From positions 451,501 to 515,500 of the forward strand of contig JACQJH010000001.1 in NCBI GenBank assembly GCA_016205145.1: 64,000 nt of DNA. The letters are read 5' to 3'. The stretch is from Candidatus Iainarchaeum sp. (GTDB lineage Archaea; Iainarchaeota; Iainarchaeia; Iainarchaeales; JACQJH01). Both the position numbers and the translations under genes were made by a program. The notes beneath the pieces were generated by a model. The model searched no databases. It saw only the letters and a program-made list of their open reading frames with translations, and was not told where the DNA came from. Below are positions 3,631-64,000 of the stretch, one piece after another (position 1 is the first letter of the stretch; each line of letters starts with the position of its first letter).

Positions 3631-3655
3631 CGGCTGGATTGTTTTTGGTGGTGGC

Positions 3656-34461: not shown

Positions 34462-34587
34462 CAAAAATTTGCTTTAAAAACCCTTGCCAGAAAAATTTTT
34501 CTAATCGGTTATCGCAGGCTGTCGCAGGCAGAGGGTTTGAGCGTAGCGAGAACCCTCAACGTCGCACCCGCCGGGCGATGACGGCGA

Positions 34588-34660
34588 GGGCCTGTAGCTC
34601 AGCTGGTAGAGCGCCGCATTCGCATTGCGGAGGCCACGGGTTCGAATCCCGTCGGGTCCA
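34588..34660 (+). tRNA. tRNA-Ala (anticodon CGC) with the G3:U70 identity pair. No CCA is encoded.
   Basis: Cloverleaf GGGCCUG/CGGGUCC acceptor, anticodon loop UUCGCAU, TUC loop TTCGAAT, discriminator A. Confidence 0.85.
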
Positions 34661-34662
34661 AA

Positions 34663-34790
34663 CACGCGCTTTCGATCGCGTGTGCCGAAACCAAGGCGTA
34701 TCACTGTCGTGATACGCCGGGTAAGCAAAAACGCGCTTTCAGCGGGACCGAAACCAAGGCGTACCGATGCTGCAGTTAACCGCGCGGGCT
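34663..34790 (+). repeat. Conserved tRNA-trailer structured module (copy A, with a degenerate second repeat): hairpin + GCCGAAACCAAGGCG + hairpin + CGCCGGGTAAGC.
   Basis: The same module with compensatory stem changes follows tRNA-Ser(UGA) and tRNA-Ser(GGA), and occurs at 51366. Confidence 0.5.
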
Positions 34791-48335: not shown

Positions 48336-48439
48336 TGGCTAGAACCTAGGGCGCCCAAAGAAATGACTGGTCAAGTGGATAATTGTATGGGTAGATAATT
48401 AATAACATTCATTCAATAAATTAAATTATTTTTTGAAGT

Positions 48440-49150
48440 TTGCGTGTCTGGGTGATTAATATAGGAAACCCAATAAATTTTGTCAAAACAAGTTTTAACA
48501 AAATAATAATCAGCACAAAAATTCAAAAAATCAATTATGTGCAACGAATTCTCCTGCTCGTAGTGTCTTGGACGCTTATTGGCTCGATTATAGGAATAAA
48601 TCTAGTAAAATTTAATCTCATTGAAGTTTCAAATTCGTCAATTATTGGTTTGTGTATTTTTAATTGTAATAATATTCAAAATGTCCAAGACAACAAAATA
48701 ACCGAAGAACAAAGGCAAATTGAATATAATAAACATCTGAGGCTTGTGGATTCAACTATTGCAGAGCTAAAAAACAATAGGGGTATTGCTAATCAGTATT
48801 TTGATGATAACAAATCGTATCTAGTTTATCACTACCTATTTTCAAAACGATTTAAAACGACCCAGCTTGAAACGCTAATAAACTCTTCAGATTTTAGAAA
48901 CAATAGCATTATGGGACTTCTAGGTATAGTTGAAACAAACACCAAAAGTGCAAATAAATATCTTGACAATTTAGAACAAATGTTAAAACAAATTGAAACT
49001 GAAGGGCAGTATGATCAATATGGTAAATATGAAGAAACATTTCAAAATATTTTTGAAAAAATTATTAAACCGCTGAACCAAGCGCAAGAAACATTAATTC
49101 AGTTATTAACAAAATACAAGGTTTCTGTGGGCATTAATTCTTTTCCGTGA
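48440..49150 (+). CDS. Orphan ORF within an approximately 0.85 kb AT-rich islet. It is a membrane-anchored, Asn/Ile/Lys-rich protein, and its start is uncertain.
   Basis: The island has strikingly low GC relative to its flanks. There is one TM segment and no recognised motif. Confidence 0.3.
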   Translation: MRVWVINIGNPINFVKTSFNKIIISTKIQKINYVQRILLLVVSWTLIGSIIGINLVKFNLIEVSNSSIIGLCIFNCNNIQNVQDNKITEEQRQIEYNKHLRLVDSTIAELKNNRGIANQYFDDNKSYLVYHYLFSKRFKTTQLETLINSSDFRNNSIMGLLGIVETNTKSANKYLDNLEQMLKQIETEGQYDQYGKYEETFQNIFEKIIKPLNQAQETLIQLLTKYKVSVGINSFP

Positions 49151-49198
49151 GCAAATAAAATTTTGTGTGGCGGTTATTGAATCTTGGTCCTTTTGTTA

Positions 49199-51031
49199 TT
49201 ATTCCCACTCGATCGTCGCGGGCGGCTTGTGCGTTATGTCGACGTACACTCCGCTGATCTTTGTCTTCGGCACTTTTTCCAAAAGCTTTTTCACGAACTT
49301 TTCGGGCAGGGGGAAAAATTTTGCGGTCATTGCCTCGCGGCTCTGCACCGGCCTCAAGACAATCGATTCGCGGCGCCTGCAGTCCGTTCCAACTGGAATC
49401 AAAACTGTCGGGAACTGCCATATTTCATTCATCAGGCCCTGCTTTTCGACCAGCTTCATCACAATCTCATCCATTTCCTGCAGCAATTCAATCCTTTTAG
49501 CGTTCAAATCCTTTGCGAACAGGTTGATGCTTTCCGCCTTTTCCCGGTTAACGCAATAGACAACCCTGTTGACTTCCGGCACTTCGTTTGTGATGCGCGT
49601 TGAAACGAATTCAAGGGCCTTCCAGCCGCTTTTGCCGAACAATGCCATGACATGCTTGTACGAGCGCGAATCGCCCTGGACGCCGACGCTTTTCAATGGC
49701 AAAACCTTTGGCCGCAAACCGGATTCGGCGCAGATTCCGGAAGCCTTTTTTTCGATTGCGGCAATCTCCTTTGCGCTGGAATCACTTTTGCCATTTGAGC
49801 ACAATGCCCTGATTGCAAGTCCCGGCCCGGGAAACGGGTGCCTCAAAACCATTTCATTGGGCAAACCGATGCTTTCGCCCAGCGCCCTGACTTCATCCTT
49901 GTACAACTGCTTCAACGGCTCTATGACAATGCCTTTCGCAATCATTTCCTCTATGACCGGAACGCGGTTGTGGTGCGTCTTGATTTTAGAGGCAAACTTT
50001 GTTCCGGCAGTCTCAATCGTGTCAGGATAAATAGTTCCCTGGCACAAAACCCACTGCTCATGGTTCAATCCGAGCTTTTCAATTTCCGCCTGCATTATTT
50101 CAACAAACAGGTTGCCTATGATTTTTCGCTTTTCCTCCGGGTCGAAAACGCCCTTAAGCGCCGCGAAAAACCTTTTCGACGCGTCAACGGTTGTAACATC
50201 GCACAATCCGAGCTTTTTGAACGCCTTTTTCACGCTTTTCGATTCATTCCTGCGCATGAAGCCCGTGTCAACGTGCAAGGCAAAAACCCTGTCACGCGGC
50301 AGGGCCTTACTCACCAAAGCCAATGCAACAGTGCTGTCGACTCCGCCGGAAACAAGGCTGAAAACCTTCCTGTCGCCGACAGCCCTGACAATCTCGATTA
50401 TCTCCCTTGAAAGATAATTTTCCATTGTCCAGTTTGCATCGCAGCCGCACACGTCAAAAACAAAATTCTTGAGAATCTGCATGCCGTTCTCAGTATGCGT
50501 GACTTCAGGATGAAACTGCAAACCGAAAAATTTCCTGCCTGCATCAGCAACCGCCGCGGCTTCACAGTCGTCGGTGCTGCCAATCACTTCAAACCCTTCC
50601 GGCAGTTTCTCGACAGTGTCGCCGTGCGACATCCACACCTTTTCATTGCCCTGCAACAAGTGGAACAGCCCTTCGGATTTTTTGACGTGCAGGAAAGCCG
50701 AGCCGTACTCCTTTGTCTTTCCGGCAGAAACCGTTCCGCCAAGCGCCTGTGCCATTAATTGGTGGCCATAACAAATGCCCAGCACCGGCTTGCCCAGTCC
50801 GAGAATCTTCCTGTTGAACGGCGGAGCATTCCTGTCGTAAACCGAGTTCGGCCCGCCGGACAAAATTATCCCGCAGCAGTTTTCAAGCTCTTTTTCGGAA
50901 ACAGTCGGCTCCTTTATCTCCGAAAAAACGTTCATTTCGCGGACGCGCCTTGCAATCAGATGCGCGTACTGCGCGCCGAAGTCGATTACAACTATGCCCT
51001 TCTGTTCCTGCATAAACTCAGATAACATCAA
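49199..51031 (-). CDS. guaA: GMP synthase (glutamine-hydrolysing).
   Basis: GATase GICYGHQ, PP-loop SGGVDSTV, and C-terminal IEWE. Confidence 0.92.
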   Translation of the reverse strand: MMLSEFMQEQKGIVVIDFGAQYAHLIARRVREMNVFSEIKEPTVSEKELENCCGIILSGGPNSVYDRNAPPFNRKILGLGKPVLGICYGHQLMAQALGGTVSAGKTKEYGSAFLHVKKSEGLFHLLQGNEKVWMSHGDTVEKLPEGFEVIGSTDDCEAAAVADAGRKFFGLQFHPEVTHTENGMQILKNFVFDVCGCDANWTMENYLSREIIEIVRAVGDRKVFSLVSGGVDSTVALALVSKALPRDRVFALHVDTGFMRRNESKSVKKAFKKLGLCDVTTVDASKRFFAALKGVFDPEEKRKIIGNLFVEIMQAEIEKLGLNHEQWVLCQGTIYPDTIETAGTKFASKIKTHHNRVPVIEEMIAKGIVIEPLKQLYKDEVRALGESIGLPNEMVLRHPFPGPGLAIRALCSNGKSDSSAKEIAAIEKKASGICAESGLRPKVLPLKSVGVQGDSRSYKHVMALFGKSGWKALEFVSTRITNEVPEVNRVVYCVNREKAESINLFAKDLNAKRIELLQEMDEIVMKLVEKQGLMNEIWQFPTVLIPVGTDCRRRESIVLRPVQSREAMTAKFFPLPEKFVKKLLEKVPKTKISGVYVDITHKPPATIEWE

Positions 51032-51189: not shown

Positions 51190-51365
51190 GCGAGTCATAC
51201 CGCTTGCGGTTCCCTGGCTTGCCCTCTCATTTTTATCCTGAGCCGCTTTCGTCCGGCTCGCCGTCTCGTCCGGCGGGTACGTTTTGTGGTGTTCGCGCCG
51301 TTGCGGAACACCACGCATGCTTTGCGGGGTTTGCAAGGGGTGCAACCCCTGCGTTTTATCCGGCT
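51190..51365 (+). ncRNA. Candidate structured ncRNA of unknown identity, made of multiple GC-rich hairpins. The strand is uncertain.
   Basis: Nested inverted repeats (GAGCCG..CGGCTC, GTGGTGTTC..GAACACCAC, GGGG-TGCAA-CCCC). No ORF. It is directly followed by a copy of the tRNA-trailer module. Confidence 0.2.
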
Positions 51366-51411
51366 GGTTCGAAACCAAGGCGGCCTGCTGTTGCAAGCCG
51401 CCGAGTGAGTC
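51366..51411 (+). repeat. tRNA-trailer-like module copy B (GGTTCGAAACCAAGGCG + hairpin + CGCCGAGTGAGT), not preceded by a recognisable tRNA.
   Basis: Core GAAACCAAGGCG and CGCCGAGT, with a distinct stem sequence. Confidence 0.4.
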
Positions 51412-51531: not shown

Positions 51532-51735
51532 GCGGGGGTGGCGGAGCGGTCTAACGCGCCAGCCTTGAGAAACCTTTTTCTTTCTTGAGAAGAAAGAAAA
51601 AGCTTCAATGCAAAATCAAAGATTTTGCATGCATCAAAAATTTGATTTTTGATGTACCAAAAAGAAAGAACCGTTCTTTGTTTCAGGCAAGCTGGTATCC
51701 GAAAGGATGCGCGAGTTCGAATCTCGTCCCCCGCG
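51532..51735 (+). tRNA. tRNA-Ser (anticodon UGA), class II, with an approximately 120-nt intron in the anticodon loop.
   Basis: Exons give a GCGGGGG/CCCCCGC acceptor, a 3-bp D-stem with an 11-nt loop, anticodon stem CCAGC/GCTGG, loop CUUGAG|A, a long variable arm, TTCGAAT, and G73. The intron is 51570-51689. Confidence 0.75.
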
Positions 51736-51736
51736 A

Positions 51737-51800
51737 GCACGCAGTTTCGGCTGCGTGGAGCGAAACTAAGGCGGTTCACACTGTGAACCGCCGAGTAAGC
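51737..51800 (+). repeat. tRNA-trailer module copy C.
   Basis: Hairpin CACGCAG-TTTCGG-CTGCGTG, then GAGCGAAACTAAGGCG, a hairpin, and CGCCGAGTAAGC. Confidence 0.5.
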
Positions 51801-52442: not shown

Positions 52443-52640
52443 ACCAAGCCTGCCCCTCTTTTTTTATTCTTTATTTAACAGCTTTTGGTATGTTAGGATA
52501 AGCCGCCGGGCGGCAGAGGCATTGAGCTTTTGCGAAATGCCTCAACATCGCACGTTGGCGACGAAAACGCGCTGAAAGCGCGTAGGGCTATGCGAGTGAA
52601 ACGAGCATAGTGCGTCGCACCAGACGGGCGATGACGTCTT

Positions 52641-52824
52641 GCGGGGGTGGCGGAGTGGTCTAACGCGCCAGCCTGGAACTGCCCTTTCTTTTCTTTGAAA
52701 AAGAAAAGAAAGTGCAAGGTGCCCAAAGAAAAGAAAACGGGCCATTGCCCGGAAAAGGCGCTTTGCAAGGCACCAACAAGCTGGTTTCCGCAAGGAAGCG
52801 CGAGTTCGAATCTCGTCCCCCGCG
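52641..52824 (+). tRNA. tRNA-Ser (anticodon GGA), class II, with an approximately 100-nt intron.
   Basis: The exons are near-identical to the tRNA-Ser(UGA) exons. The anticodon loop is CUGGAA|A. The intron is 52679-52778. Confidence 0.75.
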
Positions 52825-52888
52825 TGCCGCTTTCGGGCGGCAGTGCCGAAACCAAGGCGTATTGCTAATCGCAATACGCCGAGTAGGC
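52825..52888 (+). repeat. tRNA-trailer module copy D.
   Basis: Hairpin TGCCGC-TTTCGG-GCGGCA, then GTGCCGAAACCAAGGCG, a hairpin, and CGCCGAGTAGGC. Confidence 0.5.
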
Positions 52889-52943
52889 TCAATCAGGCAA
52901 AAAGGCTATTAAGCTTTAGCAGAAAGAATTAATCTTACTCAAA

Positions 52944-53026
52944 GCGGGGTTACCCAAGCGGTTAACGGGAGCGGGTTGAGGGCCCGTAGCTTAGTGCTTA
53001 CAGCGGTTCGAATCCGCTACCCCGCA
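52944..53026 (+). tRNA. tRNA-Leu (anticodon GAG), class II, with no intron.
   Basis: Acceptor GCGGGGT/ACCCCGC, anticodon loop UUGAGGG, long variable arm, A73. An integrase gene lies immediately downstream. Confidence 0.8.
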
Positions 53027-53087
53027 AAAGAAAATTGCGTTCTGTTTTGACCCCCTGCTTTTATTTGAAAAAGGCAGGAGGGTTTGT

Positions 53088-54209
53088 ATGATTAAGACAG
53101 AATCGCAGCTTTCAAACTACTTTTCTGGGTTCGAGGAACAGATAGGCAAGCACAACGCCCAGTTAATAATTGCTTTTGCCGAAAAGCACAGGGCGACCGT
53201 TACAGAGCCGAGCCTTCAACGAATTAGCACGGTTTGCATTCGTTTGAAGTCTATTGCCAAGTGGCTGAACAAGCCTCTGGACAGGCTAACCGAAGCCGAC
53301 CTAATCAGGCTTAACACGGCAATGCGCGACAAGGGCATGAAGTCAAGCGCGGACTACCGGCAATGCCTAAAGCACTTTTTCAAGCTGACCGACAAAAAGC
53401 GTTTCTATGACCTCATTGAATCAGAATACCTGCGAAACGTCAAGAAAAAGGGCACAGACCAGCTTGTGGACGCGGAAGAATTTTGGAGTCAAAGCCAATG
53501 CAACGATTATCTCATGGAAAGCCTTAACCGTTCCAAAAGGCACGGTGCGTTTGCTGCAATTTGGTTGTCGTGTGGCATGAGGCCGCATGAAATAATGGGT
53601 TTGCATAAGGCAGACCTTGAATTGGATGGACAAAGCCTTGTAGTCAAGGTTCGGAGCGGCAAAACCGGCAAAAGAACAATCGTGTTAAACGGCAACGAAG
53701 GAACAGGGGTTTTTCGATATGTTGAGCCTTACCTTGACACTTTGAAAGACAACGAAAAGCTATTTTCCCTGACTTACAAGGCCGTTGAAAAATGCCACCA
53801 CAACATTTGTGAAAAAATAGGCTTGCCGGAAGGCAAAAGCCGAAAGCTTTACATGAGCAGAAAACGGACTTTGACACGCTGGTATAACGAGTTTGGGCTT
53901 GTCAAGGCCGCCAAAATGTGCGGCCACGTGCAAGGCGGTCGGGCAATGAAACACTATTTGGACATGACCGACGAGGAATTGAAGGAAAACAAGCGGCCGG
54001 AACGCCTTGAAAACAAGGTTTGCCCCAATCCAAATTGCAAGCAAGTCAACGAACCGCTTAGCGGCCTATGCTCCAAATGCAGCAGCCCGCTGGACAGGGA
54101 ACGCTTTGACGAGCTGATAAAAAGCAGCTTGGACGAACTGGTTGAAACAAAAATTGCGCTGGCAATCGTCAAACTCCAAAATGAAGCCCTGAAACTCAAA
54201 ACCCAATAG
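53088..54209 (+). CDS. int: Tyrosine recombinase/integrase with a C-terminal zinc ribbon.
   Basis: Catalytic region RPHEI...GHVQGGRAMKHY. C-terminal CPNPNC...CSKC. Confidence 0.85.
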   Translation: MIKTESQLSNYFSGFEEQIGKHNAQLIIAFAEKHRATVTEPSLQRISTVCIRLKSIAKWLNKPLDRLTEADLIRLNTAMRDKGMKSSADYRQCLKHFFKLTDKKRFYDLIESEYLRNVKKKGTDQLVDAEEFWSQSQCNDYLMESLNRSKRHGAFAAIWLSCGMRPHEIMGLHKADLELDGQSLVVKVRSGKTGKRTIVLNGNEGTGVFRYVEPYLDTLKDNEKLFSLTYKAVEKCHHNICEKIGLPEGKSRKLYMSRKRTLTRWYNEFGLVKAAKMCGHVQGGRAMKHYLDMTDEELKENKRPERLENKVCPNPNCKQVNEPLSGLCSKCSSPLDRERFDELIKSSLDELVETKIALAIVKLQNEALKLKTQ

Positions 54210-54759
54210 GCTGCCCTTCATGTGCCAACAAAAAGGTTATAAATGCCAGACGATTTATTTACTGTATGAATAGTGCCGGAGCAGGCAATGTTGATGCAAT
54301 AGCTGTTTTTGGTGTTGCCGGAGCGATTTTAGGCGCAATTTTTCCCATTTTTGGAACCAACACCGTCATAGTTGGGCTGTTTGCCGGCATAATAATAGGG
54401 TTCCTTATACAACGGGGGTGATTTTCTGGACACCCCAACATATATAGCAATTTTTGGGCTGTTTGCAGTTCTCCTTCTAATATACCGAAAATTCGTTCTG
54501 AAAAAAGAACTGTCATACAGAATTTATTTTGTGGTTATTCTCGGAACGTTATCTGTTGCAGAAGCCACGTCCGCAATCATTTTGTATTTTTTTAATTTGG
54601 ATTTGGGGATTATAAGCAAAGATTTGCTGTTTGTCGTTGCGGGTGGCTTAATGCTTTTGTTTTCTTTGGGTTTTGTTTTTCGGGAAATTCGCGAGACCGA
54701 AAAATAAGGTTAAGAGCGCTGGAAAAAGGAAAGAAAGGCACATTAGCGGTAGACTAAAA

Positions 54760-55236
54760 CTAATTCTTGCGTTTTCTATTTGAAGTCCTTCTTTTTGCTT
54801 TTGTCTTATAAACTTCGTTTACCAACTTGTTAGAGTAATAACCCCTAATATCTATGCCCAATTCTTCACATGCTTTTTTTCTGGATTTGCCTTGCCGCTT
54901 TTTATTTAAAAGCCTTTTTTTCAAATATTCTCGGTTGTGTTCTGGGCGAATGCCAGAAACCAAAATTTTTTGCACCTTGTTAAACTGTCTTTTCTTAATT
55001 ATCGACTTTTTCGACTCACAATAAAACCCATTTCTAAGAATATAACTGATTGAGCTAACTGGCATTTTCATTATTTCCGCTGTTTTTCTGATTTCAAATT
55101 CTTCCAAAAAGACCTCAAAAATATGTCTAACCTTGTTGGCTGCTTTCTTATCAATAGTCAAAACCTGTATTACCTTCTTTTCTAGTTTATAGCCTAGCGG
55201 GGCACGCCACAAAATTTTATTGCTCATACTAATCAC
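54760..55236 (-). CDS. Basic HTH DNA-binding protein in the element cargo.
   Basis: HTH-like TAEIMKMPVSSISYILRN and a Lys/Arg-rich C-terminus. Confidence 0.35.
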   Translation of the reverse strand: MISMSNKILWRAPLGYKLEKKVIQVLTIDKKAANKVRHIFEVFLEEFEIRKTAEIMKMPVSSISYILRNGFYCESKKSIIKKRQFNKVQKILVSGIRPEHNREYLKKRLLNKKRQGKSRKKACEELGIDIRGYYSNKLVNEVYKTKAKRRTSNRKRKN

Positions 55237-55344
55237 ACTAGTTCTAACTGGGTTTTAAACCAATATGTGGGGTGGCTTCTTGAACAGTATTCGTCAAACT
55301 TTTTTAGAAATGTTTTTCTTGGTCAAAGGGGGTATACTATGGGG

Positions 55345-55503
55345 ATGATTATGCCATCACAAAAACGATTCGGGAAAAAAATGAAACTTTGCGTTAGCGA
55401 GGCAATGTTTGCCCGTTTGCAAAAACTCGCCAAAAAAGAGGAGACGACAATTGCGGAAATCGTTCGCGCCACCCTGAAAAGGGAAGTAGGGGCGGAATTA
55501 TGA
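55345..55503 (+). CDS. Ribbon-helix-helix (CopG/Arc-like) protein.
   Basis: KLCVSEAMFARLQKLAKKEETTIAEIVRATL has the beta-strand plus two helices pattern. It is preceded by a GGGGG RBS. Confidence 0.45.
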   Translation: MIMPSQKRFGKKMKLCVSEAMFARLQKLAKKEETTIAEIVRATLKREVGAEL

Positions 55504-55651
55504 CCTTGTTCGCTGGAATTCCTGTGGAGAAAATTCGAAAAAGTGCGGAACTCCGCGAGGCGTTCCTTGAACTCAAAAAGGCTTTCGAGCCGGGGCGCAT
55601 TGAAAAATAAAAAAAGGCGAGGCCCTGCAAGACCTCGGCCAAAAAGAAGGT

Positions 55652-55915
55652 ATGCCAATGCAGATTACGATTTCTAGAAATAAAAGCACGGGGCTGGCGC
55701 TTTACGACGGCAAAGCCTGCGCGGTTTGCGGGGCAACGAAAGGAGGGGCAAAACGTTGGGTGTTTGTGTTTTCATACTGTCAAAAAGCCAAGGTTTGCGG
55801 CCCGTGCGTTTTTCAAATAGGCCCAGCAAATGTTTCCGAGTGGCTTGAAAAAAAAGCTGTTTTTGACAAAAAAGGCTATTTGACCGGCTTTCGGCCGGGG
55901 GTGGTCGTCCCGTGA
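55652..55915 (+). CDS. Small Cys-cluster (zinc-finger-like) protein.
   Basis: CAVCG...YCQKAKVCGPC. Confidence 0.35.
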   Translation: MPMQITISRNKSTGLALYDGKACAVCGATKGGAKRWVFVFSYCQKAKVCGPCVFQIGPANVSEWLEKKAVFDKKGYLTGFRPGVVVP

Positions 55916-56514
55916 CCTCTACACCGGATGAAACAACAACGCTTGAAGAGAGCAGGCGAGTTTCGGAATTGAAGCACCTGAGCAAGGAAGCTTTTTTGAT
56001 ACAGATTACCGCAACGGAAAAGAAGATTCAGGAAGCTTTAGTAGCTGTGAAAAAACTCCATGCCAATGCCGAAATTATTTTGCAGGGAACCGCACTTGGC
56101 AAATTTGGAAAACTCGCAGACAAAGCTTTTACAGTTCTTCAAAAAAATGGCCAATTTTCAACAAACGATGCTAGCAAATTTGGCGTATTTGGTTCAAGAG
56201 ACCTGGACAAACTCTTCACTGAAATCTCAAAACGTTATCCTGAAGTGCGAACACAAAAAACCACGTTGTACGGCTCCAACCAGAAAATTCGGGTCGCAGT
56301 AATTGACGTACACGAGTTCGAAAAGGCAAAATCTGGGCCTTACAATGACATTCGCAATTTTGTCGTTGAGAAAAATCCGACACGTGACCAACTCATTGAA
56401 AAGTTTGGCTGGGGCGAAAAAGTCGCTAATGATACAATCGCATTGCTTGCGCGGAAGGGAATGCTTTGCTGGTCAGATGGCAGATATTCCTGGGAGGACG
56501 CTCAACTAGTCTGA
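55912..56514 (+). CDS. Hypothetical element protein of 200 aa.
   Basis: It is translationally coupled to the upstream ORF. No motif was recognised. Confidence 0.3.
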   Translation: MTSTPDETTTLEESRRVSELKHLSKEAFLIQITATEKKIQEALVAVKKLHANAEIILQGTALGKFGKLADKAFTVLQKNGQFSTNDASKFGVFGSRDLDKLFTEISKRYPEVRTQKTTLYGSNQKIRVAVIDVHEFEKAKSGPYNDIRNFVVEKNPTRDQLIEKFGWGEKVANDTIALLARKGMLCWSDGRYSWEDAQLV

Positions 56515-57178
56515 GGGAGTTGGGTTGTTGTAGAGTAGTATAGTAGAGTTGAAAACATATATCTCAACTAACTCCCCCCTACTTAGTTGGGTACGTTATA
56601 GGTCTATGAAAAATTATGAGAGAAAAGGAATGTTCCCAACTGGTTAAGGGGAGTTGGGTATTTTGTAAGGTGTTTTTGTGAAAAAGTCTGAAACTCAGCT
56701 TGTCCGAACAAACCTTTTGTTGCCTGAGTCTTGCCGGGCTGTGTTGAGGTTAGTTGGCTCTGGTAGCTTGTCAAAAGGTTGCAGAATTTTGGCACAGCAG
56801 GCGATTAAAACAGAGTTTGCGGCTGGCAGGCCGCGAAAATTTGACGGCGGGAAAGGCAAGGAAAATGTTGCGCATTACCACACTGGTTTTCAGAGTGCTT
56901 TCGATATACTTGAACAGCAAAAGAAGGTGGTTGGTTGAATAAAAAGAAGCGGCAAAGGCGTGTGCAGGAGTTTCTGTTTTTGGACGAGCCAACGCCCACA
57001 GCCTTGTTCCTGAAGCTGAACCGGCTTTCAAGGCAAGGCTGGCGAACCGAAATTACTGACGTCCACCATACCGAGTTTTTCCGTTCCTGCACGGCTGTTG
57101 TTTCGTGGCGTCGTGTCATGCCGCGTTTTAGCATTTCCTACACGGGAAAGGGAAACTGAAGTCAAAGGAGGACTGACT

Positions 57179-57544
57179 ATGAAAAATGCAGAAATTAAGA
57201 AAACAAAAGAAGAAACGCCATCAACCCTTGGGAACGAAACGTCTGATGAGGAAGCCGAACCAGGGCCGAAACCCAAAGGCAGGCCGCCGAAATCTTCCAT
57301 AAAAATCGAAGGCGAACCGCAGCAGGACGCGTGCGAAAAAATGCAGCAGTTGGCAATTTGTTTGACCTCGATTGACATGAGCAAGCTTTCATGGCTGAAG
57401 AGGAAAGGCCATTTTTCATACCTGTCCGAAACGATGCGGGAACTCGTGCGTGCCGAGTTTTTGCGGCTGCACCCCGAACCACCATTGTGGCCGGATGATA
57501 GTGTTTGGAAGAAACAGGGGAAGGACAAGACGACGGTTGGTTGA
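57179..57544 (+). CDS. Hypothetical protein with an AT-hook-like GRP motif (PKPKGRPPKSS).
   Basis: A GGAGG RBS precedes the ATG at 57179. Confidence 0.3.
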   Translation: MKNAEIKKTKEETPSTLGNETSDEEAEPGPKPKGRPPKSSIKIEGEPQQDACEKMQQLAICLTSIDMSKLSWLKRKGHFSYLSETMRELVRAEFLRLHPEPPLWPDDSVWKKQGKDKTTVG

Positions 57545-59097
57545 GGCAAGAAGGTGGTTTGTTTGGTGAAATCGAGGCGAAAGCTGCTCAACGAACTCGG
57601 CGGCTTGAGGCGCAGCAATAACGCTTTGAAAAGCGAGCTTGACGCATTAAGATTGCCGGAAGGCGAGCTTTGGCGCAAGGCGCATACATTGTTTCAAGAA
57701 AACCTGCGGCTTCGTGCAGAATTGGAACAGATACGAAAACAGAGGGCTAGTTTCCCATGAAACCCGCAGCAATCGCACAGGATTCACACAACTTCTGACA
57801 GGATTGCAACCAAAACAGACCTTTTTGGGCGTTTTTCAGTCATTTTAAGCCCATTTTGGGCTTGTTTTGAAGCCTTTTCCGGCTGCTTTCTCGGCCGGTG
57901 AGGGGTGTGTGTGAGATGCTTTTTGCTGGGCTACTTTTATCTGTAAACCCCATTAAATGATTCGCAAAGTAATTTGACGATTACCAAAAAAATTTTTTTC
58001 GATGGCAACTGCTGCCGCAATAGCATTTGTTTAGGGTGGTTGGATGGCTCGGAAAATCATTGGGCGATACCTATTATCGAGAGGTGTCTCTATTATTGGC
58101 CGGTCAAAAATCAAAAACAAAGCCAATTTTCCAAAAAATTTTCAGAAAACCGAGTATCGACTCGACGAAAAGAAAAGCGTTTACTTGCAATGGGCTGAAA
58201 TCAGGGATGCGTGGGTTAACTTCCAAAGCCTCGATGACCTGACCACTTGGCTGGAAGACATTTTGCCTAACGCTTCCGGCAAATATTATATCAGATGCTT
58301 CGCTGAATGGCACGCGTTCATTCCCCAGCCAACCACAAAGAAACGGTTGAAAAGAAAACGCGGCCGACCGTTCAGCAAAAAGGAAAGAAAGTTTAGAATT
58401 GGTTGGGACATCATTTGTGCCTTTGCCATAGAATCCGGCACGGTAATGAGAGTCTTCGCGCACAAGCGAGGCAAAACCGATTATTCGCCGAAGCGGCGGA
58501 ATGCTTACTGGCTTTTGGGTGCAATCCAAGACCAGAAGGAAGGCAAGCATGTCTTCGACCAGATTTAAAGGCGGGCAAAGCCTACATGCTTTTTTCGCAA
58601 ACCATTTGCCTTCAACCCGCAACGCCCTGCCCCGCAAACGGTTAAGGCATTGCCAGCAAGGGAGTTTAGTAGAAAAGCCCCGCATTTGCCTTCAAGCCAA
58701 GCAGGAGCGCGGGCGCAAAAGCCTTGCAGTTGAAATTAAGCCATGCCAACAAAAGATTAACCATGCTGGCTGCGCGTCCATAAAATCATTTGCGAAAATC
58801 GCAAGCCAAAAGGGCAGGAGTTGTGAGGCCATTTCTCATTAAGGCCTTAACACTTTTGAAAAGCGTTGACGAATACAAGCCCTTTCCCGAAAACCCTTTC
58901 GACTATTCCAGCCAGCCCCTTGTGCAGAAAAGCCCCACAGAAGGCTTCAAGGCTTTCCACTTCACCGGCGAAAAATGCCTAAAGAATAGTTCAACATATG
59001 CAGCAAAAACATTGCGCTTTTGAAAAGTGTTTGCCTTTCAATCAAAAGCCTTCAACGCTTCTCTAAAGGGTCAATTGTTTTTCATTCATTTCTCGTT

Positions 59098-59946
59098 TTA
59101 TTGGAGTTGCACTTCAATTGGAATTGCTATTTCTGGAGTGCCACAAATAATAGAATATGGCGTCACTGAGTTGTCAACTTGTCCAACACAAATGGTAACT
59201 GAGCCTGCTTCATTCTGGCTTGTAGAGCCATAACTCGAATAAGCTATTTTTAGTACAGTGCTTTGTTTTGGTCTTAAATTATATAACTCATCTTCGAACC
59301 CTATAATACCAACGTTATGCGATGTGCTATTAATTGACGTTCTAATGCCCTGCACCTCAAAATCAGAATCGTTTGTTATTGTAAGTGTTTTTTCATCCTT
59401 ATAGACCGTTTCTTTGATACTTGGTTCGTTTGGATAAACCGGCATGCTTTTCGGAGTCAAATCAATTTTTTTCGGGGCGACTTCCAGTTTTATTTCTGGC
59501 GGTGGAATTTGGAATGTTTTGCAGTCGGATGAATTAGACACGCAATAACGGATAGGGGAAATTTCTAGAGACTCTGATTGCAACAGTATGCCAATGAGAG
59601 AAGCTGAACAAACACTTTGTGGTTCACAAGAAATAGTGGTTGGCAAAGAGTCCACCGCGCTAATGCTATCATAATATATATTTAGCTCAATAGCTTTACC
59701 TTCATTTGACTTATTTTCAAATTTTACCTCTGCTGTTCCAATGGGTCTTATATCTTGTTTTGCGCCTATCGCCGCCATATCAATTGGATAGATAGATTTC
59801 CAGTTTGCCCCTTTAAATTCAATCGAGTCTATTTTAGGTTGGGCTTGTTGGATACAGCCGGTTAAAAAAATTCCTGTCAAAAAGACTGCAATCAAGATTA
59901 GCAAAATATTCCGGCCAGGTCCTAATTTTTCCCAATTATTGTTCAT
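59098..59946 (-). CDS. Secreted or lipoprotein-like element protein.
   Basis: N-terminal TM/signal with LTGC. The domain is beta-rich and Ser/Thr-rich. Confidence 0.35.
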   Translation of the reverse strand: MNNNWEKLGPGRNILLILIAVFLTGIFLTGCIQQAQPKIDSIEFKGANWKSIYPIDMAAIGAKQDIRPIGTAEVKFENKSNEGKAIELNIYYDSISAVDSLPTTISCEPQSVCSASLIGILLQSESLEISPIRYCVSNSSDCKTFQIPPPEIKLEVAPKKIDLTPKSMPVYPNEPSIKETVYKDEKTLTITNDSDFEVQGIRTSINSTSHNVGIIGFEDELYNLRPKQSTVLKIAYSSYGSTSQNEAGSVTICVGQVDNSVTPYSIICGTPEIAIPIEVQLQ

Positions 59947-60035
59947 TATACCACACTCTTATTGTCAAAACCCAGTATAAATATGTTACGTTACTGTTAC
60001 TCTGGCTTTAATTTAGGGGTTCAGTCACTAATTCT

Positions 60036-60284
60036 ATGTCTGAGTATGACCTGTTGGCGCAGATTAGGCGCGGCAAGATTAAACCCCAAATCCTTAAGCT
60101 TTTACAAGAACCAAAAACGCCAACAGACTTGAAAAAGATTATCGGAGCCCATAGAGAAACAATCAGCAGAGCAATACTCGAAATGGAAGAAAAAGGCCTA
60201 GTAACTTGTCTGAACCCAAAACAACCAAACTTTAGGTACTATCAAATTACAAACAAAGGAAAAAACCTATTGAAGAAAGTATGA
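60036..60284 (+). CDS. Small winged-HTH (ArsR/MarR-like) regulator.
   Basis: ILKLLQEPKTPTDLKKIIGAHRETISRAILEMEEKGLV. Confidence 0.45.
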   Translation: MSEYDLLAQIRRGKIKPQILKLLQEPKTPTDLKKIIGAHRETISRAILEMEEKGLVTCLNPKQPNFRYYQITNKGKNLLKKV

Positions 60285-60302
60285 GAATTTCTTATTTGCA
60301 CC

Positions 60303-61265
60303 CTAGTTAAGTAATTTTTCGCATTCTGCACTTGATTCACGCCATATACAAAATGTTACTTCTTTTTCTAGGGGGTATGACTGTTCTGTGCAATTTTCAC
60401 AATAGAGGGATACATTTAATTTGTGTAAGCCCACGGGGACGTTTTCTGGGTTACACTTTTGTTTATGTGCCCCGTCTGGCCTCTCGCTGCAGGCATTGAA
60501 TGAAATTTTCATATCTCTTTTTGTGCTTTCTAATCCGCTTAGGTTTTGGATAGTACTTTCTAGTATTTGTGGCCAGAAAATGCTATTTACGCCATTGCTG
60601 TCCTTCTCATTTGCAAGCATAGTAATTATTCCGGTATCTGTAATACCAAGATTTTGCAGTTTAAGTTTTAACCAACCGCCCGAGATTTGTTTATAATTCC
60701 CATTTTCATCAGTTTCAAATTTTGCTATTTCGCTGGCACTAAAAAATAAATCTGTTTTTTCGTCACCAAAACTTGTTTGCAAGTATGGAATGATATGTGG
60801 CGTTCTATCTAAAGTTGTGGCTAAAAGCCGTGTTTGATTCGACATCTCTTCAACTGTTTTCTTGTTTTCATTTAAAAAAGAGGCATTGAAGTATGCGCCC
60901 ACGAGAAGCGCGGCTAGAGTTATTACTGCAACTACTTTTGAAATATTTAAAGAAAAATTCGCAATCTTTGAATTTTCTTCTGCTTTGTCAGCTAGTTTTT
61001 TTGCCGATTCTGCAATTTGTTTTGTTTCTTCCACCATACTTTTTGTTGCAGCTATATTTCTATCTTGTCTTTCTAGTGAGTGCCAAAATTTTCTTTTATT
61101 ATCTTCGGCTTTGAAAGGCTCAGCCCTGCTATCTGTGAGTTTGTAGGCAAAACGAACAACTAATTCGACTTCTTCGTCTGTGCAATCGGACATGTTTCTT
61201 TTGCCAGTCACTACACTGTTAGCAATCTCAATAGCTCTGTTTTCGTCACTGAGCATAAAAATCAA
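60303..61265 (-). CDS. Membrane/coiled-coil protein with a C-terminal Cys-rich module.
   Basis: A TM helix, a long alpha-helical region, and a C-terminus CSERPDG...CNPEN...CENC...FCIW...C. Confidence 0.35.
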   Translation of the reverse strand: MIFMLSDENRAIEIANSVVTGKRNMSDCTDEEVELVVRFAYKLTDSRAEPFKAEDNKRKFWHSLERQDRNIAATKSMVEETKQIAESAKKLADKAEENSKIANFSLNISKVVAVITLAALLVGAYFNASFLNENKKTVEEMSNQTRLLATTLDRTPHIIPYLQTSFGDEKTDLFFSASEIAKFETDENGNYKQISGGWLKLKLQNLGITDTGIITMLANEKDSNGVNSIFWPQILESTIQNLSGLESTKRDMKISFNACSERPDGAHKQKCNPENVPVGLHKLNVSLYCENCTEQSYPLEKEVTFCIWRESSAECEKLLN

Positions 61266-61270
61266 TTAAA

Positions 61271-61831
61271 CTATGTTAAATCAAGTAAGTCCGTTTTGTT
61301 AGCAAGGTTGAGTAGGCCAGTGGAAAAAACCCAAGACGCAATCGCTAATGTGCCAAGTCCTGCCACTGCCAATATAACTTTGGCGATAAAAATTACTTGT
61401 GCTACAATAACCTGATTACTAAACAGCAACATTAATTTTACTAGAGGACTTTGATTAAACTCAGTTGTCGATAAATAAATTGTAGCATTAAAAAAAATTA
61501 ATCCGAAAATAAAAAGAATGGTGGAAGTAAAAAAGTTTTTTCCAGATTCTGTCGCAATTGTCTTTTGTTTTTTTTCATTCACTGCTCTGCTAAATTCAAA
61601 ACTTAGGAGGCTAAATGTTGTTGAAACAACAATTGCTGCTTCCCATAGCACGAAATATTCGGCAAATTCGTTCAATCTATTTATGTCTGGAATTAATCTA
61701 AGGATAAACGCAAATATTGCCAACGTAACTAAGCCGGCAATCATAACTGCCGACAATTTAATGGCAATTTTTATAATTTTGTTTATTTTTTTCTTAATAT
61801 TGGACTTGTCGAACTTTTTCAATAAAAACAC
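61271..61831 (-). CDS. Polytopic membrane protein (AT-rich cargo).
   Basis: Multiple hydrophobic helices. Confidence 0.35.
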   Translation of the reverse strand: MFLLKKFDKSNIKKKINKIIKIAIKLSAVMIAGLVTLAIFAFILRLIPDINRLNEFAEYFVLWEAAIVVSTTFSLLSFEFSRAVNEKKQKTIATESGKNFFTSTILFIFGLIFFNATIYLSTTEFNQSPLVKLMLLFSNQVIVAQVIFIAKVILAVAGLGTLAIASWVFSTGLLNLANKTDLLDLT

Positions 61832-61877
61832 CTATTAATTTGGTTGAAATTTACGATTCAAATACGAAAATCAACAA

Positions 61878-62615
61878 TTATACTTTCAAAATGTATTGTT
61901 TATCCTTCTTTGTCCAGCGGCCTTTTAGGATTATTGGGTGCGCTCCTTTTTCGACATATTTGCCAGAATAATAGTTTAAATCTGCGCTTTCTCCAACGTC
62001 TAAAATTGCTACAATCAAGTCAGGATAAAAGTTTGTATATTCTTCTATTTGTGCCATTAGATTTCGCAAAACATTGTTGTTTTTTGCTATTTTGACTTCA
62101 ATGCCAATTCTTCTGTTTATGACCATGTCTATTTTTTCGCCATGCTCTAATGGCACTTCAGGTTCAACCTGCCAATGCGGTTTGCTTGCTTTTAACAATG
62201 TTTCCAAAACAAATGACAATTCCCGTTCATTTTGAAAAATTCTATCAGACTCAAATTTTTTTAATATCCCAAGTATTTCTAACACTTCTGAATCAATTGG
62301 TGTTTTTCTTTTGTAAACCCACAAATTAGCCCATTTATCAATACGCTCCATATCGGCCATAAGTCCTTTGAAAAAAGACACTGTTGGTATTGATAATAGG
62401 AATAATCCTAAAAGCAAGCTCAATAGGCTACTAACAAAATCTGTTTTGAACCCACCCCAACCAAAAATTCCAGCTAAACCCAAAAATACCGATATGACAC
62501 CAATAGCTAGTAAAACAACAAAAAGTTCTGTTTTGGTTATCTTTTTTTGTCGTTTTGAGGGTGTGTTATTCCATGTATTTTTAGGCCTGCGCGCAAATGA
62601 TTTGAACCTGCCCAT
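61878..62615 (-). CDS. Membrane-anchored protein with a PD-(D/E)xK nuclease-like C-terminal motif.
   Basis: N-terminal TMs. The C-terminal GEKIDMVINRRIGIEVK has the D...E.K arrangement. Confidence 0.35.
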   Translation of the reverse strand: MGRFKSFARRPKNTWNNTPSKRQKKITKTELFVVLLAIGVISVFLGLAGIFGWGGFKTDFVSSLLSLLLGLFLLSIPTVSFFKGLMADMERIDKWANLWVYKRKTPIDSEVLEILGILKKFESDRIFQNERELSFVLETLLKASKPHWQVEPEVPLEHGEKIDMVINRRIGIEVKIAKNNNVLRNLMAQIEEYTNFYPDLIVAILDVGESADLNYYSGKYVEKGAHPIILKGRWTKKDKQYILKV

Positions 62616-63045
62616 CTGCCAAAATTATGTCCTTCTAGTTAAAAAGTTTTTCGGCATTATTGGCTGTGGCTTTAAAGTTGTAGGTTGCATTTGAGCATTT
62701 AACAATTCAGTACAAGCAGAGTTAAAGTTCTCGCAATTCATAGTTTCCGGTCTTGTTTAAAACCCATTCTAGCTTTTGTCCGGCTTGCCAGCCTTTGGCC
62801 TTGACAAGCGGTGGCGCGATTGTGAGAACAAACGCCCCGCTTTGGTGTTGTTGGAGTTTTGGCATTTCGGTTCACCAAAAAAACTTTATATTAGTATTGA
62901 CATTATATAAGATATAAAAGCAGGGGTTATAACGTAGAATTGTAATCAATCAGAACGCATTTTTTTATTTCGGCTACCCCGCATCATAATCTGATTCGTC
63001 ACTTGTGCATGGTCGTATTTTCTCTGGTTAATTTTTTTGGCGGCC

Positions 63046-63069
63046 AAAAGTTCTACGCGTAGAACTTTT
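63046..63069. promoter_or_regulatory. Perfect 24-bp palindrome AAAAGTTCTACGCGTAGAACTTTT upstream of the DtxR/MntR-family gene. It is a candidate metalloregulator operator.
   Basis: Exact self-complementarity, 28 nt upstream of the start codon. Confidence 0.45.
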
Positions 63070-63096
63070 TAAGCTTATCTGTGTTCATAGTGCTTT

Positions 63097-63495
63097 ATGG
63101 TTAACCAATCCAGGCTGGATTATGTCCGGGCGATTTTCATTTTGTCCGGCAGGCTGGGCGAGGTTCGCGGCAAGGGCCTGTCGGAATACCTTGGCGTGAG
63201 CAAGAACACTGTTTCGACAATGCTGAAGCGCTTGAGGGCGCAGAAGCTTGTTTTGTATGAAGAGTATGGCGCGGTTTCATTGACAAAGAAGGGCGAGCGG
63301 CTGGCGAAAGACCTTACCGCAAGGCACAGGCTCATAGAGCTTTTTCTTACCAGGGTTCTCAAGCGCAATCCCAAGACAGTGCATGGCGAGGCCGACCTTT
63401 TGGAGCACGCTTTTTCCGAGCAGAGTTTGAAGTCGATGCGAAAGCTTTTGGGCAATCCCAAGTTTGACCCTCACGGGAAAACAATTTTCGTTTGA
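63097..63495 (+). CDS. mntR: DtxR/MntR-family metal-dependent transcriptional repressor.
   Basis: N-terminal HTH (SEYLGVSKNTVSTMLKRL) and the metal-binding region (HRLIELFL...HGEADLLEH). Confidence 0.8.
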   Translation: MVNQSRLDYVRAIFILSGRLGEVRGKGLSEYLGVSKNTVSTMLKRLRAQKLVLYEEYGAVSLTKKGERLAKDLTARHRLIELFLTRVLKRNPKTVHGEADLLEHAFSEQSLKSMRKLLGNPKFDPHGKTIFV

Positions 63496-63507
63496 GGCTG
63501 ATTTTGG

Positions 63508-64000
63508 ATGGTTTTACAACGCCTAAACAGGTTTACAGAGGCCTTGGGCAGGGTTTTGTCGAAGTTTCGCGTGTTCTCGGATCCGAAATTTTGGGCGTTT
63601 TTCGGCACCGGCCTGATTGTCAGCGTCGCGTACATGGATCCGGGCAATTGGGGAACCTCGATTGCGGCCGGCTCGGTTTACAATTACAGCCTGCTTTGGG
63701 CTATCTGGCTTGCAAGTGGAATGGCAATGCTTTTCCAGTATTTGTCCGGAAAAATGGGGATTGCAGGCTATTCTCTTGCCGAAGTCATTCATCTGCGCTG
63801 GAAAAACAGGTCGCTTGTGCTTGTTTATTGGCTGCTTGCAGAAGCCGCCATTCTTGCAACCGATCTTGCTGAGTTTTTGGGAATCGTCGTTGCACTAAAC
63901 CTTCTGTTCGGCGTGCCCTTGCTTTTAGGCGCGTTCATAGCAATGCTTGACGTCCTGTTGCTTTTGTTCCTTGCCTCCAAGAGCTTTCGCGCAATCGAAT
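63508..64000 (+). CDS. mntH: Nramp-family divalent metal (Mn2+/Fe2+) transporter MntH. The N-terminal part runs off the window end.
   Basis: GTGLIVSVAYMDPGNWGTSIAAGSVYNYSLLW is the Nramp DPGN signature. There is no stop codon before 64000. Confidence 0.85.
   Translation, partial: MVLQRLNRFTEALGRVLSKFRVFSDPKFWAFFGTGLIVSVAYMDPGNWGTSIAAGSVYNYSLLWAIWLASGMAMLFQYLSGKMGIAGYSLAEVIHLRWKNRSLVLVYWLLAEAAILATDLAEFLGIVVALNLLFGVPLLLGAFIAMLDVLLLLFLASKSFRAIE

Follow-up and report, generated by a model that had tools for sequence, protein, structure and literature searches.

A 64,000-nucleotide stretch of the chromosome of Candidatus Iainarchaeum sp. (here called the window; all coordinates refer to that stretch) very probably carries an integrated mobile element at 53027-62983. 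The 9,957-bp element sits at the 3′ end of a tRNA-Leu(GAG) gene in this Diapherotrites-type DPANN chromosome and belongs to a small family of integrase-bearing episomes. An earlier reading of the sequence (the original prediction) had proposed an element of about 10 kb at this gene, bounded by an 11-bp repeat. That proposal is now backed by an empty site in a related genome and by the synteny of the joined element ends with circular relatives.

The tRNA gene was called by ARAGORN and recovered by Rfam in E-value mode, whereas the Rfam gathering mode with fast filters missed it. Its final 11 nt, GCTACCCCGCA, have exactly two copies in the 64 kb by exact match search, against 0.04 copies expected by chance in shuffled sequence. 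The second copy lies where the original prediction had placed it, at the far boundary, as in tRNA-targeted islands that carry a direct repeat of the tRNA 3′ end (here 11 bp, two copies). The features of the insertion site are the following.

52944-53026, plus strand: host tRNA-Leu(GAG), the integration target, intact after insertion (ARAGORN; Rfam, 49.5 bits)
53016-53026, no strand: attL core GCTACCCCGCA (exact match search)
53022-53047, no strand: element-side inverted-repeat arm adjoining attL, with the perfect 9-mer TGCGTTCTG at 53036-53044 (inverted-repeat scan)
62948-62973, no strand: element-side inverted-repeat arm adjoining attR, with the perfect 9-mer CAGAACGCA at 62951-62959 (inverted-repeat scan)
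62973-62983, no strand: attR core GCTACCCCGCA (exact match search)
62984-63041, no strand: host flank, found directly after tRNA-Leu in the related contig L020 (blastn, 79.7% identity)

As a control, we compared all 11-mers of the tRNA-Leu gene with the 53 kb upstream and found two non-tRNA chance matches. Because such matches turn up, the 11-bp repeat by itself is only moderately strong. Matches whose end coincides exactly with the discriminator base of the tRNA, as here, are expected by chance about 0.003 times in 11 kb (by arithmetic). At both ends of the element, the core is bordered on the side facing the element by inverted arms of 26 nt with 81% complementarity, which are presumed integrase binding sites. 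Joining the element ends gives the attP junction TTTATTTCGGCTACCCCGCAAAAGAAAATTGCG, and joining the end of tRNA-Leu to the right flank gives the attB junction GAATCCGCTACCCCGCATCATAATCTGATTCG.

The empty site was found by scanning the Joint Genome Institute (JGI) metagenomes for the 22-nt 3′ half of the tRNA-Leu gene. Two contigs were returned, one of which, Ga0066639_10033987 (3,775 bp; here L020), carries a tRNA-Leu gene 100% identical to that of the window. Positions 1-291 of L020 share 97.9% identity with window positions 52540-52830 (the tRNA-Ser(GGA) region), and its positions 590-663 align to window positions 62970-63041 (79.7% identity by blastn). The NifU-IscS genes of L020 and those to the right of the window share 81.8% nucleotide identity, which indicates that L020 comes from a close relative. 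As its tRNA-Leu gene runs straight into the sequence found to the right of attR in the window, the 9,957 bp are absent from L020 and the break falls exactly at the repeat, as expected of a tRNA-targeted island. The original prediction had proposed looking for such a site and had named two outcomes that would speak against insertion, namely, a region fixed in all relatives without the repeat, or a chance repeat with the true boundary elsewhere. L020 lacks the 10 kb and breaks at the repeat itself, so neither outcome applies.

Base composition also sets the region apart. The GC content between the repeats is 41.5%, compared to 52.1% in the rest of the window, which agrees with the lower-GC interior noted previously. 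At third codon positions (GC3), the minus-strand genes at 59098-62615 have values of 0.30 to 0.31, compared to 0.64 to 0.66 in neighboring host genes, and the genes between 55339 and 59023 have values of 0.42 to 0.61. Both GC and GC3 thus deviate in the manner of a genomic island.

Integrase, element family, and cargo

The left end of the element is occupied by its integrase gene.

53088-54209, plus strand: tyrosine integrase, 373 amino acids (aa), with a zinc ribbon at the C terminus followed by a long helix (PF00589; PHROG 1, E = 1e-14)

The open reading frame (ORF) begins 62 bp past tRNA-Leu and is uninterrupted, with the core located upstream of its start codon. The Pfam score is just above the cutoff (27.7 bits against 27.1 for PF00589). 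A word-indexed search of 5.8 billion proteins returned 11 homologues with 40 to 51% identity, all from uncultured archaea, giving a family of 12 sequences. In the alignment of the 12, the residues R165, K192, Y255xxR258, H280, and Y290 are conserved, as is a CPNPxC...CxxC zinc ribbon followed by a long helix. The AlphaFold2 (AF2) model has a mean predicted local distance difference test (pLDDT) score of 81.4 and shows two domains (core binding and catalytic). Foldseek matched this model with a probability of 1.00 to XerA (5hxy, the top hit), XerH, Tn1549 Int, Cre, and lambda Int, and its best structural match in BFVD is the integrase of an uncultured archaeal virus. The catalytic residues and the two-domain fold are those of the tyrosine recombinase superfamily, and the intact integrase with a zinc ribbon that the original prediction had described directly after the tRNA is thereby confirmed.

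Archaeal integrases are divided into those of the classical kind, whose gene stays intact, and those of the SSV type, whose gene is split on integration (PMC8371274). R..YxxR..Y is the signature of pNOB8-type integrases, and archaeal att sites can be as short as 8 to 13 bp (PMC8371274). Here, the gene is intact after integration, attP lies outside the ORF, and the signature is present as R165, Y255xxR258, and Y290. By its intact gene, signature, and short att site, the integrase fits the classical (type II, pNOB8-type) archaeal kind. Clustering with the XerA/XerC/pNOB8 family has used a criterion of at least 30% identity over 60% of the protein (PMC8371274). The window integrase scores 40.6 bits with the XerA model (cutoff, 220) and has 18 to 19% structural identity to XerA; judged by these scores, it is predicted not to be XerA itself.

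Contigs carrying related integrases revealed the family that the original prediction had suggested. It is a small one, with three apparently circular members and one further tRNA-integrated member. The contigs L002 (11,956 bp), L004 (9,065 bp), and L007 (6,768 bp) appear to be circular because their ends overlap by 59, 30, and 27 bp, respectively, and in L007 a large gene reads through the contig junction, consistent with a circle. L001 is the second integrated member; its integrase gene begins 59 bp past the end of a tRNA that bears an intron, and host ribosomal-protein genes lie upstream. Relatives and the window element have in common the integrase and three small genes.

55500-55610, plus strand: backbone small ORF upstream of the zinc-finger gene, 36 aa (about 49 aa in relatives) (tblastn to L007 588-737, E = 5e-6, and to L002 5650-5799, E = 9e-5)
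55652-55915, plus strand: zinc-finger protein, 87 aa, CxxC...CxxC followed by an EWLEK helix, the family hallmark (relatives' homologues, alignment)
62722-62862, minus strand: AbrB/MazE-like protein, 46 aa (tblastn to L007 1584-1724, E = 5e-7)

Each of the five relatives with flanking sequence carries the zinc-finger protein (E = 1e-7 to 1e-14). In the window, the small ORF (55500-55655) reaches a stop after 36 codons; since similarity to the 49-aa relatives runs past this stop, the ORF may have been recently truncated in this copy. The AbrB-like homologues in L002, L007, and L004 match PF04014, whereas the window ORF itself has no direct Pfam match.

The AbrB-like gene is the last gene before attR and is transcribed away from the att site, so that it becomes divergent from the integrase gene once the element is circular. 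The same arrangement is seen in L007 and L002, where the AbrB-like gene lies directly upstream of the integrase gene and points the opposite way. In L004, the orientation is the same, but a 325-aa gene lies between the two. When 62863-62983 is joined to 53027-53090, a 185-nt divergent region between the AbrB-like and integrase genes is formed, in which inverted repeats surround the core. This region and the 180 to 185 nt that immediately precede the integrase start in L007, L004, and L002 are collinear. The joined region and the relatives share TATA-like boxes to either side and identically placed inverted repeats, with spacings of 33, 39, and 45 nt. Circularizing the element at the 11-bp repeat therefore recreates the conserved layout of the family.

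Unlike the window copy, the relatives encode ATPases of the replication type. L001 encodes an AAA_25 RepA/DnaB-like helicase, and L002, L003, and L004 encode DnaA-like AAA+ proteins. Downstream of the zinc-finger gene (directly so in L003 and L007), L002, L003, L004, and L007 carry a 440- to 550-aa protein with an SGxGKD P-loop-like motif; it had no sequence match in Pfam, PHROGs, or the PDB and is probably an undescribed replication helicase of the element family. The membrane proteins of the window element are not conserved among the members. L007 has, adjoining its integrase gene on the minus strand, two paralogous proteins of 111 and 107 aa (3109-3444 and 3455-3778) with a hydrophobic helix at each terminus. 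This pattern recalls spindle-virus capsid protein pairs; neither paralogue had a significant match in Pfam or PHROGs. We found no description of a family with the integrase, AbrB-like, and zinc-finger genes in the libraries and literature searched, and within that scope both the family backbone and its DPANN host appear undescribed.

The remaining genes of the window element are listed below.

54266-54421, plus strand: 51-aa protein with two hydrophobic helices (hydropathy scan; gene call on Logan contig L012); the alternative call is an overlapping 85-aa ORF on the minus strand, 54259-54516
54531-54707, plus strand: 58-aa protein with two transmembrane helices (hydropathy scan; weak DUF2721 match, E = 0.0024)
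54760-55236, minus strand: 158-aa basic protein, isoelectric point 10.4 (PHROG 7701, "DNA invertase," E = 1e-6 over residues 12 to 97, a weak match; no Pfam match)
55339-55503, plus strand: ribbon-helix-helix-like small regulator; longest ORF from 55267 (PF01402, E = 0.0015, below the curated cutoff; called as 54 aa on Logan contig L011)
55912-56514, plus strand: 200-aa orphan located where relatives carry the 440- to 550-aa P-loop protein (position; no family match)
56678-56938, plus strand: small basic ORF (ORF list; gene calls on L011)
56935-57159, plus strand: small basic ORF (ORF list; gene calls on L011)
57179-57544, plus strand: small basic ORF with a GRP AT-hook (translation; gene calls on L011)
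57554-57760, plus strand: small basic ORF with a coiled coil (ORF list; gene calls on L011)
58044-58568, plus strand: 174-aa basic orphan with a KRKRGRP AT-hook-like motif (translation; no family match)
59098-59946, minus strand: acidic protein of 282 aa with 7 Cys residues and an N-terminal helix, either anchor or signal (hydropathy scan)
60036-60284, plus strand: 82-aa winged-helix regulator (PF25213, E = 6e-7; MarR, PadR, and TrmB-type matches, all below cutoffs)
60303-61265, minus strand: 320-aa protein with a single transmembrane helix at its center and Cys residues in its C-terminal domain (hydropathy scan)
61271-61831, minus strand: 186-aa polytopic membrane protein with four to five segments (hydropathy scan; no family match)
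61878-62615, minus strand: 245-aa protein with a C-terminal PD-(D/E)xK-type nuclease domain behind two N-terminal membrane helices (PHROG 28707, "nuclease," E = 2e-13; hydropathy scan)

Nearly all of the carried genes are without known function. Neither of the two small hydrophobic proteins after the integrase had a significant match in Pfam or PHROGs. The basic 158-aa protein is probably DNA binding, and the four small basic ORFs at 56678-57760 gave only a weak bZIP-like coiled-coil match in Pfam. The acidic protein at 59098-59946 found only itself among 5.8 billion proteins, and the protein at 60303-61265 had only nine weak matches (E = 4e-7 or worse) among 1.84 billion representatives. The nuclease shares 30% identity (E = 3e-7) with a RecB-family nuclease of Thermococcus prieurii virus 1. 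We considered whether 55912-56514 or 58044-58568 is a remnant of the large P-loop protein of the relatives and rejected both (hhalign probability, <1%); the AF2 model of 55912-56514, made from a single sequence, was unusable (pLDDT, 49.7). Most of the cargo list in the original prediction stood, including the zinc-finger protein (now known to be conserved), the AT-hook-like, membrane, and Cys-containing proteins, and, at an E value of 6e-7, the winged-helix protein; the ribbon-helix-helix match is weak (E = 0.0015).

Searches of the cargo with Pfam, PHROGs, NCBIfam, and PADLOC detected no capsid, replication, plasmid, or defense family, in line with the original prediction for capsid and replication genes, and the last two gave nothing for any cargo protein. 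There is no P-loop motif in any ORF of the element, and tblastn and hhalign revealed no trace of the relatives' AAA_25 helicase, DnaA-like AAA+ ATPase, or large P-loop protein. Thus, no gene for a replication initiator, helicase, or primase of an autonomous plasmid was found in the window copy. The comparison with viral and plasmid databases that had been proposed earlier gave, for the concatenated cargo by tblastn, the nuclease as the sole match among 50,697 phage and virus records and no match in PLSDB. IMG/VR held no relatives of the integrase alignment or of three cargo proteins (55912-56514, 58044-58568, and 61878-62615).

Mechanism and lifestyle of the element

We propose that a circular form of the element recombined with the chromosome by means of its own classical (pNOB8-like, R..YxxR..Y) tyrosine integrase. 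Strand exchange would take place within the 11 bp (GCTACCCCGCA) common to attP and the 3′ end of tRNA-Leu(GAG), with the integrase presumably bound to the flanking repeats. Because the element supplies the same 11 bp, tRNA-Leu would remain whole at attL, and the integrase gene, which lies 62 bp inside the left end, would likewise be preserved. When the element is circular, the attP core, flanked by imperfect inverted repeats, would lie in a divergent control region of about 185 nt between the AbrB/MazE-like and integrase genes. Once integrated, the element, if plasmid-like or satellite-like, would be copied passively as part of the chromosome, and the low-GC block of membrane or secreted proteins, together with the membrane-anchored nuclease, may be accessory cargo acting at the cell envelope. 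The perfect repeats, intact integrase, and intact ORFs argue for a copy that is recent and possibly still mobile; the 36-aa backbone ORF, seemingly truncated, is a possible exception to the intact ORFs.

Several observations weigh against this account. The Logan contigs of SRR12113383, SRR12113384, and SRR12113385 that carry the exact integrase, nuclease, or DtxR gene all show attL or attR, 100% identical to the window, and none of them shows a circular junction or an empty site. Neither the excised circle nor attB, either of which would be expected of an island active in the same population, was thus seen among the assembled contigs of these samples. A degenerate pattern covering attB, attP, attL, and attR had no match in the JGI metagenomes. 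The empty site comes from a related organism and not from the same strain, and its flank diverges beyond about 60 bp; positions 664-2036 of L020 hold a 420-aa ORF on the other strand where the window side has DtxR, Nramp, and a 260-aa ORF. Finally, joining the ends leaves 33 nt between the perfect inverted 9-mers, a wider spacing than in a classical core site. The presence of only integrated junctions in the source samples, together with the two chance 11-mer matches to tRNA-Leu in the 53 kb upstream, could be taken to mean that no insertion occurred and that the 11-bp match is fortuitous within an old, fixed chromosomal region. We regard this as extremely improbable, given the empty site in L020 with its break exactly at the repeat, the inverted arms at both ends, the synteny of the joined ends with circular relatives, the foreign composition, and the location of an intact integrase right beside the tRNA.

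As to the nature of the element, the window copy lacks the replication ATPase and helicase genes of its relatives and has no recognizable virion or packaging gene, which inclines us, with about even confidence, toward an integrative element that is cryptic and resembles a plasmid or satellite, and away from an autonomous virus. This reading is itself based on absence of evidence, and archaeal virion proteins are often unrecognizable by sequence. The two-helix hydrophobic proteins and the block of envelope proteins would also suit a small enveloped or spindle-shaped virus. A provirus of such an archaeal virus (pleomorphic, if enveloped), in which the hydrophobic and secreted proteins are virion parts and the regulators control lysogeny, is the main rival reading and seems doubtful. 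It would account for the two small proteins with two hydrophobic helices directly after the integrase and more strikingly, for the 107- and 111-aa paralogues beside the integrase of L007, whose N- and C-terminal hydrophobic helices form a pattern that spindle-virus capsid proteins typically show. The sole viral integrase detected by sequence belongs to Geoglobus acetivorans pleomorphic virus 1 and has the same layout of recombinase and zinc ribbon, the best BFVD match of the window integrase is likewise viral, the nuclease domain has a counterpart in Thermococcus prieurii virus 1, which is spindle shaped, and the family size range of 7 to 12 kb fits pleolipovirus-like genomes. However, integrases and nucleases are swapped freely between viruses and plasmids, and the integrase is the only protein shared with the pleomorphic virus, the element having no VP4-like fusion protein, VP3-like protein, or NTPase. 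The small hydrophobic proteins have no significant PHROGs or Pfam match. With regard to the major capsid protein of spindle-shaped viruses (VP1 family), which has two hydrophobic helices, two small two-helix hydrophobic proteins are present and no sequence family matches either. The integrase family and three cargo proteins are without IMG/VR relatives, and the membrane proteins vary among family members, although core virion proteins would be expected to be conserved.

It is also conceivable, if unlikely, that the integrase/AbrB-like/zinc-finger backbone marks an undescribed family of 7- to 12-kb temperate viruses of Diapherotrites- or Micrarchaeota-like DPANN with entirely new virion proteins, the window copy being a lysogen; the hydrophobic two-helix proteins that adjoin the integrase, along with the orphan envelope proteins, would then be the virion candidates. 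A composite origin, in which a backbone (integrase, regulators, and zinc finger; 43 to 52% GC) was joined by a separately acquired low-GC block (about 58750-62700; 32 to 38% GC), perhaps a remnant of a second element, strikes us as quite improbable. The sharp split in GC3 between the genes from 55339 to 59023 (0.42 to 0.61) and the minus-strand genes at 59098-62615 (0.30 to 0.31) would fit it, as would the restriction of sharing with relatives to backbone genes. On the other hand, the core sequence is confined to the two ends and no att copy occurs internally, the backbone part itself contains a second low-GC patch (54250-55250), and the AbrB-like backbone gene sits beyond the low-GC block, at the far right end, which indicates that the block lies inside one element and is not a tandem neighbor.

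Sequence surrounding the insertion

To the right of the shared 58-bp flank, the gene content of the window (63042-64000, extended by Logan contig L014) differs from that of L020, and synteny resumes at NifU-IscS. Since the two genomes diverge at this point, the region beside tRNA-Leu is a variable spot independently of the element, and the presence of DtxR, Nramp, and the 260-aa ORF in one genome and of the 420-aa ORF in the other is ordinary flank variation. The DtxR-Nramp block was considered as a tandem second element and rejected, as there is no further copy of the core and its GC content is host-like. A search for an empty site by way of the flanking DtxR gene was dropped; the best homologue (66% identical; Micrarchaeota, contig L018) was nonsyntenic.

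The original prediction had also taken the absence of a downstream trailer from tRNA-Leu, the only tRNA in the cluster to lack it, as consistent with insertion. The absence itself is real: the trailer GAAACYAAGGCG follows tRNA-Ala and both tRNA-Ser genes and not tRNA-Leu. It is, however, also absent to the right of attR and after tRNA-Leu in the empty-site contig L020, and its absence is therefore not a consequence of insertion. The complete trailer module consists of GAAACYAAGGCG, a hairpin, and then CGCCGRGTAAGC, and has five copies, all on the plus strand (two after tRNA-Ala(CGC), one for each tRNA-Ser, and one at 51371 without a called tRNA); L020 has one extra copy. A 5′ leader module ending in CGGGCGATGACG precedes tRNA-Ala and tRNA-Ser(GGA), and tRNA-Leu has neither leader nor trailer. 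These flank modules, at 34560-34770, 51360-51410, 51736-51800, 52612-52640, and 52825-52900, may be processing signals or a small RNA.

The two tRNA-Ser genes (51532-51735 and 52641-52824) have unusually long introns of 123 and 102 nt, with the anticodons UGA and GGA as read by eye. Both were missed by ARAGORN and recovered by Rfam, and the att-site tRNA of L001 is intron bearing as well. A GC-rich, hairpin-rich stretch at 51200-51410 ends in the trailer module; no tRNA or Rfam family was detected there, and the stretch might represent a tRNA, perhaps heavily interrupted, that escaped detection or some other small RNA. Elsewhere in the window, a second low-GC island (48250-49250; GC, 0.29 to 0.33) between a Pif1/RecD-like helicase gene (47040-48335) and guaA holds a single Asn/Ile/Lys-rich ORF of 236 aa (48440-49150) with an N-terminal hydrophobic segment. 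This island looks foreign, though no integrase or repeat was seen there.

Significance and comparison with known systems

Few DPANN mobile elements have been tied to a host, and a large provirus survey found none in 1,356 Micrarchaeota genomes (PMC13573593). The element of the window has a definite host, exact ends, a defined att site, an empty-site control, and circular relatives, and it can therefore anchor the host assignment of 7- to 12-kb circular contigs of the same family. The pair formed by the integrase and its att site is compact and might become a genetic tool for organisms now lacking one. The kind of element, a tRNA-targeted integrative element with a classical tyrosine integrase, is already well known and its mechanism is textbook, so the gain lies in cataloguing and practical use and not in concept.

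Among viruses, the nearest counterpart is Geoglobus acetivorans pleomorphic virus 1, a member of Thalassapleoviridae (PMC12451623) and the only match when the window integrase was compared by tblastn with the 50,697 phage and virus records (E up to 1e-3; the presence of SNJ2 in this set was unchecked). Its integrase is of the same length (374 aa), has the same core-binding and catalytic domains, CPxC...CxxC ribbon, and terminal helices, and is likewise encoded at the left end of the provirus. In contrast, the two integrases are only 22.5% identical, the viral one has HxLR where the window family has YxxR, and blastp revealed no other shared gene, the VP3, VP4, and rolling-circle Rep of the virus being absent from the window element. 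More broadly, blastp, tblastn, and a P-loop scan found no VP4-like fusion protein, VP3-like membrane protein, or conserved NTPase of Pleolipoviridae or Thalassapleoviridae. The SNJ2-type haloarchaeal pleolipoviruses are temperate, 10 to 17 kb in size, and integrate into tRNA 3′ ends via a 13-bp core, with an intact integrase at one end (PMC8371274). The window element resembles them in its size, its use of a short core at a tRNA 3′ end, and its intact terminal integrase, but it is without pleolipovirus core genes; no Rep-Arvir domain (DUF7845) was detected in the cargo, as no Pfam family was detected there.

The SSV-type (type I, suicidal) integrative elements, which include fuselloviruses, pTN3, and pT26-2, also integrate into tRNA genes, and the two-helix proteins of the window resemble fusellovirus capsid proteins in pattern only. 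Unlike in these elements, attP of the window element lies upstream of the integrase gene and not inside it, and the gene is unsplit. Also among the closest known systems are the classical (type II, pNOB8-type) elements and those that Krupovic et al. 2019 (as cited in PMC8371274) catalogued in Thaumarchaeota as cryptic integrated elements. The window element differs from these in an integrase that scores far below the XerA cutoff and ends in a zinc ribbon and helix, in its DPANN host, and, from pNOB8 itself, in a size of 10 kb that is far too small for a conjugative plasmid. It shares with them an intact integrase gene, the R..YxxR..Y signature, a tRNA 3′-end target that is regenerated upon integration, a repeat whose 11 bp fall within the archaeal range of 8 to 13 bp (PMC8371274), and a cargo made up mostly of genes of unknown function.

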